Of a stretch of 64,000 nt of DNA, positions 17,605 through 58,365 are shown piece after piece. A program made the translations under genes and the position numbers. This DNA is from Lytechinus pictus. Its lineage: Eukaryota. Under the pieces are notes generated by a model, which saw nothing but the letters and a program-made list of their open reading frames with translations, had not been told where the DNA came from and searched no databases. Position 1 is the first letter of the stretch. Each line of letters opens with the position of its first letter. The stretch lies in contig NC_087250.1 of assembly GCF_037042905.1 (NCBI RefSeq), positions 8,620,001 to 8,684,000 of the forward strand. Reading direction: 5' to 3'.

Positions 17605-17730
17605 GGTATGTGTGAGTATGTTATTGATTTTACTTTTACAGAGTTGTATTGAATACTTGCATCTGTGACCGACATTGAACGTCATCCATGCAGGGCTCGA
17701 ACCTCAAAACTCTGCATCGATTTGGTTGTA
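17605..17730 (-). mobile_element. Old diverged copy of the SINE seen at 55461 and 56684, in the gene 3'UTR
   Basis: TCTGTGACCGACATTGAACGTCA..CAGGGCTCGAACCTC..TCTGCATCGATTT aligns with the young copies; 7SL head not recognisable. Confidence 0.65.
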
Positions 17731-30468: not shown

Positions 30469-32439
30469 GGTATCACAGGCCTAATTCATTTCCCATAGAC
30501 TCGTGCGTTAAAGTGGCACTTAAAAAATTCATTAAAAATAAGGACGAAATTCGAGGGTTGAATGTTTACTATCAGTGGACAGGATATATGTCTGAGATTC
30601 CATATCTGACCAGAAAAGGGTACCTCGACCGGCTCATTTTAAAAATAAATCGGCATTTATGAAGACTACACCTGCCGGGACCAAATTCATCACTTGAGAG
30701 AGTAAAATGGCCCTAATTCTTCCGCCAGTAAAAAAATAGTTCCAAAGTAGTGATATATCTTTCCAATTTGGAAAAAGAAAGTTCAGTAGGTACCCTCCCT
30801 AGAATCAGTGTTAGATTGTCAATCATATTCATTCATTTTTGTCAATCAGCAATATCAAATTTCAAAATTGAGCAATGGGTTGGCTCGAATGAATATTTTT
30901 GGCCTGCCAGTTGTAGTTAGGCCCGTGTGACCTTTATTATATGGCACATGAAGCCAGGTTTCTTTTTAAATTCCTGGCTTTTCTTTAACATCTGTACACT
31001 CACTTTATCACAAAGAAATGCATGAAATATACATATGTGTTGTGTAATGACCAATTTTAATGTTACTCCTGTATGTCTAGTGCCATATGGATTTACACAC
31101 ATCCTACCTGCCTATATATGTAGTTCAACAATGAATGGATGCAATGTAGGGCCCTAATCCTATAATGTAAAATTGTAGATAAGCATAGTGTGCATATCTG
31201 GATGCAAGAACTGCCCACAACATAAATACAAGATTTACATGAGTTAAATGAGATAACAATAAAAAGAAATGAGAATTAACATACAAGCATACTATACATT
31301 CACATCTTCCTATGACAAGGGGTGTAAGAAAGAGAGAGAGAGAGGGGGTTAGATGGCTTGTATTCTAAAGGGATGGGGGCTAGTCTGGCTAGAAATAAGT
31401 GAAAGTTAGAACAAGATAGCAGTAGCACTCATTCTCAGCCACCCCCCAGACATACTTACTCTGCTTTACTCTACCCCTCCCTCCTTCTTGAATCCACCAC
31501 TCTTCAGTCAAATTCTAAAGTTCTCTCTTCTCCATCCCTTTCCCATGAGCCATTTCCACAATTGCAATTGATCAAGGCTTATCTAATGTTTAGTGTAACC
31601 TGTAATGGGTGCTATACACGAATACAGCAGCGCTCGTTGGTATACGAAAACACACGAAAACATGCAACACAGAGACTAACGTTAGCCTAAGTTACACAGC
31701 CTAGCCTAGCCCTAGGTATACAAACACAAAGGTACTAATCACAATTCATTACCTGACATACCCCCTATACAGCCTTGCATATAACCATTAAGTCAGTTTT
31801 TGGACCTCTTGATGATTGAAACATGTATACTAGTGCAAATAATTTGCTACTGAAGAGTTTGGGCAGGTATTTCATCCACTAGGGAATTCCCCTTGTAGGC
31901 TATAGTCAAGGTCATTTTAGGTATCACAGGCCTAATTCATTTCCCATAGAATCGTGTGTTAAAGTGGCACTTTAAAAAATTCATAAAAAATAAGGAGGAA
32001 ATTCGAGGGTTGAATGTTTACTATCAATGGACAGGATATATGTCTGAGATTCCATATCTGACCAGAAAAGGGTACCTCGACCGGCTCATTTTAAAAATAA
32101 ATCGGCATTTATGAAGACTACACCTGCCGGGACCAAATAAATATTCATATCTGAATAACACGCGCCTCAAAACCCAAGATAACAACAACGAATTCATCAC
32201 TTGAGAGAGTAAAATGGCCCTAATTCTTCCGCCAGTAAAAAAATAGTTCCAAAGTAGTGATATATCTTTCCAATTTGGAAAAAGGAAGTTCAGTATGTAC
32301 CCTCCCTAGAATCAGTGTTAGATTGTCAATCATATTCATTCATTTTTGTCAATCAGCAATATCAAATTTCAAAATTGAGCAATGGGTTGGCTCGAATGAA
32401 TATCTTTGGCCTGCCAGTTGTAGTTAGGCCCGTGTGACC
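30469..32439 (+). mobile_element. Non-autonomous element with long terminal direct repeats (KolobokP-like)
   Basis: Direct repeats 30469-30932 and 31920-32439, each with short imperfect TIRs (GG..CC), TGGG TSD, TTTA at both inner junctions. Confidence 0.8.
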
Positions 32440-52805: not shown

Positions 52806-55460
52806 GGTTCTATAACAATAACCCAATTAGGGCAATCACCCCCTGACAACTACTTCAAGGAAAATATTATCCCCATATTTTTACCGCCGGGGACTATACC
52901 CCCCCCCGGAAATTTACCCTCCAGACAATTACCCCTAGTACGGAGCCTTGAAAATGCCATCAACGTGGCGACATGGCGCGGTACTTTATCTTGCCATGTC
53001 TTAATTAATCATTGGCGGCGGAAGGCAAAAAAATTAGGGGGGTTGTTGCACCCACAAATGTAATAACGCCCACAAATGTAATAACACTTTACCCACAAAT
53101 GTAATAACGCCCACAAATGTAATAACACTTTACCCCCAAATGTAATAATTTCACCCACAAATGTAATAATGCACTTTACCCACAAATGTAATAATTTTTG
53201 ATCGCCCACAAATGTAATAATGACTTTACCCACAAATGTAATAAATTTGAAGGGATTTTTGGCGAATCCGTTCTAAACTGAAATCCTGTAGTAATGCGTT
53301 CATATAGCGATGGGCCTATTGTAATAGGTCCATGATATAGCACAAAAGTGCAAAGTCTTTTTTCCAGACCTGGTTAATTAAAAAAATATAATATAAGTCC
53401 AAAGCCTTTTTTCCAGACCCGGTTGTTTAAAAAATTATAATATAAGTCCAAAGTCTTTTTTCAAGACCCGGTTATTTCAAAAATTATAATATAAGTCCAA
53501 AGTCTTTTTTCCAGACCCGGTTGTTTAAAAAATATTATAATATAAGTTTAAAGTCTTTTTTCCAGACCCGGTTGTTTCAAAAATTATAATATAAGTCAAA
53601 AGTCTTTTTTCCAGACCCAGTTGATTAAAAAATTATGATATAAGTCCAAAGTCTTTTTTCCAGACCCGGTTGTATCAAAAATTATAATGCAAGTCCAAAG
53701 TCTTTTTTTCCAGACCCGGTTGTTTCAAAAATTATGATATAAGTCCAGTCTTTTTTCTAGACACGGTTATTTCAAAAATTACAATATAAGTCCAAACTTA
53801 GATACGATAATGATATTCAAGTGGAATAAAAATAAGAATCGAGCTTAGTCTTTTCTCCAGACCCAGTTAATTAAAACTTGTGGAATCAATGTCTTGTTGT
53901 TGTTTTAACTTATACGGCGCATATCGTGAATATATACGTAAAGAGTAAATTGAAAATCAATTGTAGTCTTTTCTCCAGACCCAGTTACTTAAAATTAAAT
54001 ACTAAAACCCTATAGTAATGCGTTCATATAGCACAAAAGTGTAAAGTCTTTTTTTCCAGACCCGGTTAATTCAAAAATTATAAATATAAGTCCAAACTAA
54101 GATACAATAATGCTATTCCAGTTGAATAAAAATGAGAATCGAGCTTAGTCTTTTCTCCAGACCCAGTTAATTAAAGCTGATGGAATAAATGTCTTTGTTG
54201 TTTTTTGAAATTATACGGCGCGTATTGTGAATATATGCGCTAAGAGTAAATTCAGAACCAAGCTTAGTCTTTTCTCCAGACCCGGTTACTTAAAACTGAA
54301 AACCCTAAAGTAATGCGTTCAAATTGCACAAAAGTGCAAAGCCTTTTTTCCAGACCAGGTTAATTAAAAAATTATAATAAAAGTCAAAGTCTTTTTTCCA
54401 GACCTGTTTGAGTAAAAAAAATATAATATAAGTCCAAAGCCTTTTTTCCAGACCCGGTTGTTTAAAAAATCATACTATAAGTCCAAAGTCTTTTTTCCAG
54501 ACCGGGTTATTTCAAAAATCATAATATAAGTCCAAACTAAGATACCATAATGATATTCCAGTGGAATAAAAATGAATTCCAGTGGAATAAAAATGAATTG
54601 AGCTTAGTCTTTTCTCTAAACCCTGTTATTCCAAAATTATAAATAACAATACAACAACAAAAACAGTATAAAGACTCCATAATCTTGTTAATGATGGATA
54701 ACATGGACATATAGAGTAGTCTTTCAGCCAGACCCAGTTATTTTTTTTCAAAATATCGCAAATAGTAATAATAAAAAACTACAAATCTAAGACCAAGCAA
54801 TCCTTCAACCTAAGAACCTGTTTTAAAAAGAGGTTAAGAACGTTGTCTTTATTCCAGACCTAATCATTTAAAATATTACCCAAAAAAAATCTTCTAACGT
54901 AAGACCCTATCATATTCTTATTCTTGTGGAATAAGACGAGATTCAAAACGTACTCTTTCCTCCAGACCCAGTTTTTTAACAAATGAAATTTAAAAATACT
55001 TCAAATCTAAGACCAATTTTCAAAAGTTACACCCAGAAAAAAATGTCTTTACCCCACACCCATTTTTTAAAAAGAAATAATACTAAGACCCCTACAAAAC
55101 ATTGTAATAATGCATGGGTAAAGCAATCATCTTTTCTCAAGACTTGGTTATTATTTGAAAAAAATAAAATAGTTTTTACAAATATTCTTAAACGAATACC
55201 CAATCATCTAATTACTGTGGAATAACATGAAGATCGATTGTAGAATTTCCTCCAGACACAGTTATTTCAAGAATAAAAAAGCAATAAAAAACCCAACCCC
55301 CAACAACGAATCTAAGAACCATCAATCCTCCAAATTAAGACCATGTAAAAAAGCACATGTTTAAAGCGTTGTCTTTATTCCTGACCCAGTCATTTAAAAA
55401 ATGATTTAAACAATCTTAAAAACATAAAACTTTTTCATATTCTTATTCCTGTGGAATAAC

Positions 55461-55639
55461 GTGTGTGTGTGTGTGTATTTGAGTTTTGTCAGACGTGTAT
55501 CAATCAGATATGATTATTTACGTCTGGGACCGACCTTTAACGTCACCATCCGAAAGACGTGACCAGGGCTCGAACCTCTGCATCAATTTGTAACTTCCCC
55601 GCATAGCTTGGATTACAGGCGCACGCCACAACGCCCAGT
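55461..55639 (-). mobile_element. 7SL-RNA-headed SINE, full-length copy
   Basis: Minus strand ACTGGGCGTTGTGGCGTGCGCCTGTAATCCAAGCTA head, GGTTCGAGCCC B-box, (CA)n tail. Confidence 0.85.
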
Positions 55640-56683
55640 ATTATGATTAGTCTTTCTTCTAGACCCGGTTATTTAAAAGATAAACAATCATTGAAAAAAA
55701 AATCTAGGCTAAGACCAATCTTCAAAATTAAACCCAGTTAAAATGCTTGGGTTTAGAGCGTTGTCTTTACCCCACACCCAGTTCTCTTAAAAATACGAAT
55801 TAAGCCAAACTATAAAAATCATGTGATAACGCATACCACAAAGACGACAAATTAATCATAGGCGTAAATATTCATATGATACGCGCCTTAAAATCCAAGA
55901 TAACAACAACAATGTTTTTCTACATCAATGATATTGTGGGGTCTTTACTTATACTGTTTGTTTGTTTTTATTGTTTCTTATAATTTCCTATTTTGAAATA
56001 ACTGGGTCTGGAGCAAAGACTACACCATATTTCCATGCTATCCAATGTTGATAAGATTGCAGGGTCTTTGTTTTGTTGTTGTTGTTGTGTTTTTTAATTA
56101 TTTTTATTACTGGGTCTTGAGAAAAGTCCACGCTATATTTCCATATTATTCAACATGACTAGGATCGTGGGTCGTTGTTTTTTTAATTATTATTATTAAT
56201 TTTGTATTATTATTCTTCATTTGTTATTTGAAAGATCTGGGTCTATATGAAAGACTACGCTATATTCCCATGTTATTTAACATTAATAAGATAGTGGGGG
56301 TCTTTGTTTCTTGTTGACTCTTTAAAAAATGATTTGTAATTTTGAAATAAGTGGGTCTGGAGGAAAGACTGCGCTATATTTCCATGTTATTCAACATCAG
56401 TAAGACTGTGGAGCCTTTGTTTTATTATTATTATATATCTTTTCTATGATTTTTTATTTTAAAATAACTGGGTCTTGAAAATAGACTACGTTATATTTTC
56501 AAGTTATTCAACATCAATGAGATAGTGGGGTCTTTGTTAATAGTGTTCTTTATGATATGCAATTGTGAAATAACCGGGGCTGGAACAAAGACTACACCAT
56601 ATTTCGATACTAATAATCATATCTGATTGATACACGTCTGACAAAACTCAAATACACACACACACACACACACACACATACTA

Positions 56684-56860
56684 ACTGGGCGTTGTGGCGT
56701 GTGCCTGTAATCCAAGCTATGTGGGGAAGTTACAAATTGATGCAGAGGTTCGAGCCCTGGTCACGTGTTTCGGATGGTGACGTTAAAGGTCGGTCCCAGA
56801 CGTAAATAATCATATCTGATTGATACACGTCTGACAAAACTCAAATACACACACACACAC
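56684..56860 (+). mobile_element. 7SL-RNA-headed SINE, full-length copy (preceded by 3' fragment 56612-56678)
   Basis: Same structure, about 3 differences from the 55461 copy. Confidence 0.85.
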
Positions 56861-58365
56861 GCTATTCAATGTTGAAAAGATTGCGGGGTCTGTTTTTGGT
56901 TGTTGTTGTTGTTCTTTTGTTTTTGAATGATTTTTTTATAACTGGGTCTGGAGGAAAGACTATGCTATATTTACATTTTGTTCAACATTAATAAAATCGT
57001 GGGGTCTTTGGGTTTTTTTTATTATTATTTATTATTTGCTATTTGAAATATTTGGGTCTGGAGCAAAGGCTAAGCTAAACTTCTATGTTATTCAACAATA
57101 AGAAGAATTTATTTGGAAGATTGTTTAAATGTTTTATATAACCGGGTCTAGAGAAAAAAGACTGTGACTTTGCACTGTATTAACGCATTACTATAGGGTT
57201 TTATTTTAGAACAGATTCGCCAAAAATCCCTTCAAATTTTGTAACATATGTGGGTAAAGACATTATTACATTTGTGGGCGATCAAAAATTATTACATATG
57301 TGGGTAAAGTGCATTATTACATTTGTGGGATGAAATTATTACATTTGTGGGTAAAGGGTTTTAGTTTTAAGTTTTAAGTAACTGGGTTTGGAGAAAACAC
57401 TACGCTTGATTCTCAATTTACTCTTAGCGCATATATTCACAATAAGCGCCGTATAAGTTAAAACAACAACAAAGACATTAATTCCACCAGTCTTGATTAA
57501 CTGGGTCTGGAGAAAAGACTAAGCTCGATTCTCATTTCCATTCCACTGGAATATCATTACCGTATCTTAGTTTGGACTTATATTATAATTTTTGAAACAA
57601 CTGGGTCTGGAAAAAAGACTTTGGACTTATATTATAATTTTTGAAACAACCGGGTCTGGAAAAAAGACTTTGGACTTATATTATATTTTTTTAAACAACC
57701 GGGTCTGGAAAAAAGACTTTGGACTTATATTAAAATTTTTGAAACAACCGGGTCTGGAAAAAAGACTTTGGACTTATATTATAATTTTTGAAACAACCGG
57801 GTCTAGAAAAAAGACTTTGGACTTATATTATAATTTTTTAATCAACCGGGTCCGGAAAAAAGACTTTGGACTTATATTATAATTTATGAAATAACCGGGT
57901 CTGGAAAAAAGACTTTGGACTTATATTATAATTTTTGAAATAACCGGGTCTGGAAAAAAGACTTTGGACTTATATCATAATTTTTTTAACAACCGGGTCT
58001 GGAAAAAAGACTTTGGACTTTTATCATAACTTTTGAAACAACCGGGTCTGGAAAAAAGACTTTGGACTTTTATCATAATTTTTGAAACAACCGGGTCTGG
58101 AAAAAAGACTTTGGACTTACATTATAAGTTTTTAATTAACCGGGTCTGGAAAAAAGACTTTGCACTTTTGTGCTATATCATGGTCCTATTGCAATAGGTC
58201 AATCGCTATATGAACGCATTACTAAAGGATTTTAGTTTAAAACGGATTCGCCAAAAATCCCTTCAAATTTATTACATTTGTGGGTAAAGTCATTATTACA
58301 TTTGTGGGCGATCAAAAATTATTACATTTGTGGGTAAAGTGCATTATTACATTTGTGGGCGAAAT

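Follow-up and report, generated by a model that had tools for sequence, protein, structure and literature searches.

The window analyzed here is the whole 64-kb stretch of DNA from which the lines above are taken. A sequence-only reading of it had described two near-identical copies of a 7SL-headed SINE with a 3' fragment at 56612, and had taken the host to be an invertebrate; the genome is that of a sea urchin. An HSP70 exon of 592 aa is 98% identical to a protein named from Lytechinus variegatus, as against 89% for Diadema and about 80% for Strongylocentrotus, so that the host belongs in or near Lytechinus; a search of the assembly for the mitochondrial COX1 family found no match. The features on which the analysis draws are as follows, with element positions (nt) counted from the first nucleotide of the SINE.

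53050..58365, no strand: foldback-like element of about 5.3 kb, with long inverted arms around a center near 55800, holding both window SINE copies
55461..55639, minus strand: full-length SINE copy, head at 55593-55639, 1 difference from the family consensus
56612..56678, plus strand: SINE copy truncated at its 5' end, with element nt 122-177 and an extended (CA)n, adjoining the plus-strand copy upstream
56684..56860, plus strand: full-length SINE copy of 177 nt including the (CA)n tail, 2 differences from the family consensus
56684..56730, plus strand: 7SL-derived head, nt 1-47, comprising helices H2, H3, and H4 from the Alu domain's 5' part
56695-56705, plus strand: 7SL/Alu-type A-box-like motif TGGCGTG(C/T)GCC inside the head, nt 12-22
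56747..56757, plus strand: tRNA-type B box GGTTCGAGCCC, nt 64-74, identified from its sequence
56768..56797, plus strand: Nin-DC-like segment TTTCGGATGG...GGTCCC, nt 85-114, identified by eye against Nin-DC SINEs
56797..56833, plus strand: 3' hairpin, nt 114-150, with a 7-bp outer stem and a 6-bp inner stem
56848..56860, plus strand: (CA)n tail, identified from its sequence, its length differing among copies
17609..17724, minus strand: old and decayed sequence related to the SINE's body and tail, 64% identical to nt 50-176, head unrecognizable

The two full-length copies form an inverted pair (arms 55463-55639 and 56684-56860, 177 nt each, 98% complementary), and they differ from one another at 3 sites only, element positions 19, 38, and 84. 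The fragment was also as first described: 56612-56667 corresponds to element positions 122-177 at 100% identity, and a 5-nt duplication, ATACT, flanks the fragment at 56607-56611 and 56678-56682. The window contains two occurrences of a 32-nt motif from the head, as against 0 of 100 dinucleotide shuffles with 2 matches, a control that speaks only to the non-chance repetition of the motif. The decayed relative at 17609-17724 had only 14 candidates in the genome, none with a readable head.

The arms of the foldback-like element are built of 23-, 49-, and ~110-bp subrepeats, and one example pair of arm segments (53148-53533 and 57980-58365) is 94% complementary. The central 110 nt are common to copies of this element elsewhere in the genome, and we take the structure to resemble the TU foldback elements of sea urchins. 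On contigs C10 and C1 (loci L001 and L003), the plus-strand SINE copy and the fragment upstream of it are found again without a single change, between the same flanks; the copy also recurs, minus the fragment, in the paralogous loci L012 and L013. Because copy and fragment stand in identical flanks on two further contigs, DNA duplication carried the plus-strand copy of the window along as a passenger. Thus both copies described earlier are real, but only the minus-strand copy is an insertion in its own right, made independently into the other foldback arm. The SINE pair is asymmetric about the axis of the arms, with arm midpoints at ~55760-55830 and a SINE pair midpoint at 56161.

A DNA search of the host genome (assembly of 812 Mb, 368 contigs) returned at least 1,749 first-look candidates. 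The best 40 of these, which as the highest-ranked make a biased sample, had 98-100% identity across 174 nt or more. Pattern counts, each allowing up to 3 mismatches, gave 1,224 heads with a 34-mer and 1,484 cores with a 35-mer, with 0 matches for either reversed control, and at least 100 perfect heads lay on contigs C1-C3 alone. Among 26 top-hit loci with differing flanks, a top-ranked and hence biased set, 8 copies equaled the consensus over all 177 nt; most of the other top-hit copies differed at a single common CpG/TpG site. Older subfamilies were 184-185 nt long, 88-96% identical, and carried a 7-nt GGTT(C/T)GA duplication beside the B box. Their heads were nearer to 7SL, with CTACG rather than the CTATG of young copies, and one copy was without the extra A. 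SINEBase defines SINEs as interspersed elements shorter than 1 kb with at least 100 copies and at least 60% identity to 7SL, tRNA, or 5S RNA over at least 60 nt (PMC3531059). The urchin elements are 177-185 nt long and dispersed, with 65 distinct flank combinations and well above 100 copies. The earlier suggestion of recent activity was likewise borne out by a family that is multi-copy, dispersed, and rich in identical copies. On the sequence comparisons given here and below, we estimate a probability of about 85% that this is a genuine, recently amplified chimeric SINE of the sea urchin, headed by a piece of the host's 7SL RNA.

The junctions of 65 distinct copy/flank combinations were assessed with a simple duplication test. 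In 6 of the 65 (L022, L038, L062, L072, L075, and L084), the target site was duplicated over 9-13 nt, allowing no more than 1 mismatch. Another 5 had duplications of 5-6 nt (L009, L015, L028, the window fragment, and L039, the last possibly an artefact of the CA tail), and 53 of the 65 had none by this test. An apparent 8-nt duplication at L001 was rejected as a spurious match in the CA tail. The points of 5' truncation fell at many different positions, in some copies together with duplications (L075, for example). Truncations and duplications of 0-13 bp such as these appear to be the marks of target-primed reverse transcription by a LINE of non-L1 type. Five separate insertions (the L013 group, the young copy in L014, L023, the minus-strand window copy, and the truncated L079) have their 3' junction directly before G(T/C)TAT(T/C)C of the ~110-bp monomer, all in the same orientation relative to the monomer. 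Both window copies sit at this recurrent insertion hot spot, which would be one for the nuclease of a putative partner LINE. A common target motif was not seen for most other insertions among the 65 junctions.

These junctions also bear on the strongest of the alternatives, namely that the copies spread only as passengers of DNA duplication, in foldback-like elements and segmental duplications, and not by SINE retroposition. The recurrence of the plus-strand copy in shared flanks is just what such passengers would show; another repeated flank is common to L018, L025, and L028, and L039 and L040 are paralogous. Most examined copies, however, lie in unrelated flanks. The 9-13 nt target duplications at 6 of 65 junctions and the 5' truncations at many positions, with duplications in cases such as L075, also argue against passive spread, as do young SINE copies that are 99-100% identical inside ~110-bp monomers that are only 60-80% alike. 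We consider it very improbable that duplication alone accounts for the family, and we favor retroposition of a 7SL-headed SINE.

The starts of both window copies had been said to match 7SL RNA in its Alu domain. In a search of 1.7 kb, the Rfam family Metazoa_SRP (RF00017) matched both heads over model positions 1-44, with 29.6 and 29.2 bits and E values of 2.1e-5 and 2.6e-5. The gathering score of this family is 70, and both heads score far below it because a 47-nt piece is compared with a 299-nt model. The same model gave scores of 272-283 bits to 7 full-length 7SL genes in the host genome. A further 18 matches scored 32-35 bits; these were short and head-sized, and the three examined (L038-L040) were SINE heads. 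The SINE consensus was identical to the host 7SL gene L037 at 41 of 47 positions, and the older copy L038 was identical to three host 7SL genes at 38 of 40. Against the host 7SL genes, the head was identical throughout nt 4-30 and at 37-38 of its first 40-41 nt. The SINE and the host 7SL genes have GCGTTGTGGCGTGCGCC in common where the Rfam metazoan consensus has gcgcggUGGCgcgcgCC, and these common differences argue for capture from the lineage's own 7SL.

The earlier proposal of a 7SL head thus gained a source, the host's own gene, and a limit at nt 47. Local alignments of the SINE to 7SL extended from nt 1 to about nt 100 (71/100 to 77/103), but they were significant only for nt 1-47, and homology past that point was rejected as chance. 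For the part of L038 past nt 47, 444 and 293 of 500 shuffles scored as well against 7SL. For the same part of the consensus, 10-18 of 500 did so, with the match at an unrelated place in the S domain. The 3' part of 7SL was absent from the SINE as judged by alignment past nt 47 and by these shuffles. All 12 of the canonical H2/H3/H4 pairs can form in the consensus head, and the pair types are those of 7SL gene L037, including U3-A. Minimum free energy folding gave H3 and H4 for the consensus head and for the head of the minus-strand copy. The head of the plus-strand copy folded non-canonically (z +1.6) because of a C-to-U change in its H3. Taken together, these comparisons indicate that the host's own 7SL RNA was the source of nt 1-47 and that the head coincides exactly with H2-H4, the Alu domain's closed 5' part.

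The remainder of the element is of another origin. The B box, the TTTCGGATGG...GGTCCC segment, and the (CA)n tail were all found where they had first been placed. The B box GGTTCGAGCCC is a perfect fit to GGTTCGANNCC, which we take to be the consensus of tRNA-type B boxes; that of the older subfamily is GGTTCGAATCC. No T4 terminator was present inside the element, and its promoter-like motifs are the A-like box at nt 12-22 and the B box at nt 64-74. A tRNA-derived head with A and B boxes is not what the SINE carries; it keeps only a T-arm-like B-box segment, and ARAGORN found no tRNA in the window, in the SINE, or next to the host 7SL genes.

The perfect tRNA-type B box in its T-arm-like segment, together with the Rfam score under the gathering threshold, would suit an ordinary SINE2 whose head is tRNA-derived or of some other origin and resembles 7SL by chance or convergence. 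That account has very little to recommend it, given that ARAGORN detected no tRNA in the window and that the head equals host 7SL at nt 4-30 and at 37-38 of the first 40-41 nt, host-specific substitutions included. We therefore retain the 7SL-headed chimera as the reading of the element.

Printed cores of Nin-DC SINEs are available for Lottia, Nucella, Littorina, and Potamopyrgus (PMC4758252 supplement file 4), and by eye nt 85-114 resemble the 5' end of the core in Lottia_Nin, Nla_Nin, Lsa_Nin, and Pan_3 from that file. A comparison by eye with Nla_Nin gives agreement at about 26 of 33 positions; the likeness covers the first ~30 nt, and the rest of the Nin-DC domain is absent. The central segment had been likened to the core of Deu, Nin, and Meta SINEs. 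The Nin-DC likeness held by eye, and what corresponds to it is only ~30 nt of that domain. A mollusc-type Nin-DC motif had 0 matches in the host genome at up to 2 mismatches. The 3' hairpin folds at -13.0 kcal/mol (z -3.45), and 2 of 200 shuffles folded as well; the fold of the whole element is unremarkable (z -0.57). After the hairpin there is an A-rich stretch and then the (CA)n.

From this anatomy, our best reading is that of an independently born, recently active chimeric SINE of the SINE1 type, a non-LTR retroposon specific to this lineage. We propose that the 47-nt head was captured from host 7SL and attached to what had been the 3' part of an older SINE related to tRNA, the source of the T-arm-like B box, the truncated Nin-DC-type core, the hairpin, and the (CA)n tail. 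The birth would most likely have been by template switching or recombination from SINE RNA to 7SL RNA, as has been proposed for hagfish SINE1. A search for a tRNA-headed parent with the same core, using a pattern that excluded the 7SL head, found none among the 100 of 521 matches listed; all 100 were 7SL-headed, carried indels, or were 5'-truncated. LINE reverse transcriptases are known to switch templates to small RNAs (PMC7245038, PMC4758252), and the copies might then be sporadic, repeated retrocopies of a 7SL fragment and a SINE, like U6-L1 chimeras, rather than one self-propagating family, but this is hardly credible with 1,224 heads, an identical junction after nt 47 in all full-length copies seen, and diagnostic changes common within subfamilies.

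For the self-propagating SINE that we favor, RNA polymerase III would start at nt 1, directed by a composite promoter of the A-like box (nt 12-22) and the B box (nt 64-74). The 3' hairpin and (CA)n would be recognized by the reverse transcriptase of a putative stringent-type LINE. By target-primed reverse transcription, this LINE would copy the SINE RNA into nicked DNA and leave 5' truncations and variable duplications of 0-13 bp. SRP9/14 may bind the retained 7SL fold and so guide the RNA to ribosomes, a role also proposed in Alu. In Alu, the A-like box lies near nt 12-22 and the B box around nt 65-75, as in the urchin SINE.

SINEs derived from 7SL are treated as an extreme rarity in the literature, and those described in the two papers cited here are from supraprimates, shrew mole, and hagfish, all vertebrates (PMC7245038; bioRxiv 10.1101/2024.08.25.609555). 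Kojima 2020 reported hagfish SINE1 as the first outside Euarchontoglires (PMC7245038), and Kosushkin et al. 2024 added Urop of the shrew mole, for three independent 7SL SINE lineages (bioRxiv 10.1101/2024.08.25.609555). The sequence-only reading had named Euarchontoglires and hagfish correctly and had missed Urop. No 7SL SINE from an echinoderm or other invertebrate was found in the literature, and 14-20-mers of the urchin SINE occurred in no paper text, a search that covered the main text of papers. Judged against the literature, the SINE is probably undescribed, although we hold this with only modest confidence. It is, by a narrow balance of likelihood, the first 7SL-derived SINE of an invertebrate, the fourth independent birth of a SINE1, and a new architecture that combines a 47-nt 5' part of the Alu domain with a borrowed tRNA-type B box.

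The nearest parallel is SINE1-1_EBu (Ebu1-1) of the hagfish Eptatretus burgeri. As described in PMC7245038, it also has a 7SL head on a pre-existing SINE body and a birth separate from Alu, and it also ends in a microsatellite-type tail and is mobilized by a non-L1 LINE, a partner that for the urchin SINE is putative. Its copy number of 2,363 (quoted in bioRxiv 10.1101/2024.08.25.609555) is of the same order. SINE1-1_EBu retains the 5' and 3' regions of 7SL alike, and with them the complete Alu domain; its tail is bipartite, derived from RTE, and includes (AAC)n (PMC7245038). In contrast, the urchin SINE has 7SL nt 1-47 only, a tRNA-type B box, a Nin-DC-like core, and a (CA)n end.

In supraprimate Alu, B1, and Tu and in shrew-mole Urop, too, the head comes from the 5' end of 7SL and spans the same H2-H4 region. 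They are 7SL without its ~183-nt center, joining the 5' and 3' ends, and they have an A-rich tail and are mobilized by L1 (bioRxiv 10.1101/2024.08.25.609555). Unlike these, the urchin SINE is without the 7SL 3' part and has a tRNA-type B box and a hairpin with a (CA)n tail. A SINE described in 2007 resembles it in that a promoter-bearing unit was made from both 7SL and tRNA; that SINE is mammalian, L1-dependent, and from supraprimate SINE1 stock (cited in bioRxiv 10.1101/2024.08.25.609555). The known SINE1 families all retain both ends of the Alu domain, which PMC7245038 uses to argue that the whole domain is needed. The urchin SINE has the 7SL-derived 5' head of a SINE1 and lacks the second 7SL end that is kept by Alu, B1, Urop, and Ebu1-1. 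In carrying the 5' part of the Alu domain only, together with a tRNA-type B box, it appears to differ from every described SINE1.

Its body invites comparison with Nin-DC, or Inv(alpha), a superfamily of invertebrate SINEs with a tRNA origin (Piskurek and Jackson 2011; Luchetti and Mantovani 2013, cited in PMC4758252). Members share with the urchin SINE the motif (T)TTCGGATG..GACG.TAAA....GGTCCC directly after a tRNA-type B-box region and a microsatellite tail (PMC4758252). The urchin SINE differs in that the domain is represented by only ~30 nt from its 5' end and in having a 7SL head rather than a tRNA head. Compared with the printed Nin-DC sequences (PMC4758252), its core has a 1-nt insertion and has GGTC where Nin-DC has CCGA.

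Alu, the most abundant human mobile element, is derived from 7SL. An echinoderm SINE made from the urchin's own 7SL would show that the birth of 7SL SINEs is not tied to vertebrates or to L1. It would also be a natural deletion experiment, a family of more than a thousand copies with only the 5' part (H2-H4) kept. If this is true, an H2-H4 module without helix 5 or the 7SL 3' end suffices for an advantage with a hairpin-recognizing, non-L1 LINE, and within foldback-transposon subrepeats lies a pronounced hot spot for the nuclease of that partner LINE. It would become directly testable which portion of the 7SL fold aids retroposition, in an animal with good tools for embryo injection and genomics. 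The very low divergence suggests still-polymorphic insertions, which would serve as markers.

A LINE with the SINE tail was sought with a tail pattern preceded by non-SINE sequence and in ~340 kb of loci, and none was found. The pattern matched exactly at 19 places and, with up to 3 mismatches allowed, at 166; all of the matches listed, 100 of the 166 among them, were truncated or rearranged SINE copies. The examined loci and the window together contain 17 ORFs of at least 180 aa, 12 in the loci and 5 in the window. A domain scan of all 5 window ORFs, one of which overlaps a scanned locus ORF, found no family, and a scan of 8 of the 12 locus ORFs found no LINE linked to the SINE tail. The locus scan gave one sulfotransferase domain (L006) and one weak endonuclease-RT match (L016, E 2e-4) that is unlinked to the tail. 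A related (AAC)n tail, with no ORF attached in the examined DNA, is present in the window at 55796-55912 and 32138-32195.

Both full-length window copies of the SINE, the 177-nt family with a head derived from host 7SL RNA, were carried by a foldback-like element. The inverted arms of this element (up to 386 nt, 94% complementarity) were composed of tandem subrepeats of 23, 49, and approximately 110 bp. The element was present in multiple copies, with its central 110 nt common to seven genome loci (L001, L003, L012-L014, L023, and L079), and it resembles the TU foldback transposons of sea urchins. The features concerned were as follows.

Features in the window and at host genome loci
Window 53050-58365: foldback-like element, ~5.3 kb, inverted arms around a centre near 55800
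Window 55461 and 56860, and loci L014, L023, L079, and L013: hot-spot SINE 3' junctions in the ~110-bp monomer
Window 55796-55912 and 32138-32195: 5'-truncated retroelement tail with (AAC)n at its end
Window 17609-17724, minus strand: old relative, with 64% identity to the SINE body and tail
Loci L031-L036, contigs C10 and C1: 7SL genes with a downstream B-box-like motif

In the ~110-bp monomer, G(T/C)TAT(T/C)C directly follows the 3' junction of five separate SINE insertions, all 5 of which were in a single orientation relative to the monomer. This site is an insertion hot spot for the SINE. No common target motif was found among most SINE insertions outside it. The (AAC)n tail was approximately 80% similar to the SINE tail region, and its copy at window 55796-55912, central in the foldback-like element, occupied nearly the same position in the monomer as the hot spot. 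This tail may belong to a related LINE or SINE. An unrelated repeat of about 220 bp lay at window 31920-32138; the number of its first-look candidates in the genome was 1,979, and it had copies with 92-97% identity.

A tandem array in the host genome (C18:3150275-3170672; unit ~1.7 kb) contained the same 5'-truncated SINE tail in each of at least 12 units; a SINE fragment has been amplified there as a satellite component. Of two paralogous loci, L039 and L040, one had a head-to-tail SINE dimer and the other a single copy; because the single copy appears to be a recombinant of both dimer units, unequal crossing-over between tandem copies is suggested. Separately, a short MITE-like element with ends GGGGAGCG...CGCTCCCC was located inside SINE copies (L078), and adjoined the SINE body at ...CCTGGTCAC in 3 other loci (C9:14268807, C17:1181344, and C20:11619360).

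The head of the old relative was too decayed to distinguish 7SL from tRNA, and a duplicate of this relative with 95% identity lay on the same contig (C6:8605903) at a distance of 32 kb. On C10, each of the three tandem 7SL genes carried one old SINE copy (80-88% identical), whose end lay approximately 35 bp upstream of where the gene starts. Except for L037, the host 7SL genes (6 of 7) had a B-box-like GGTTCGAGTC(C/T) beyond the T-run terminator, at a distance of approximately 15-45 nt, and this motif may be a downstream TFIIIC site.
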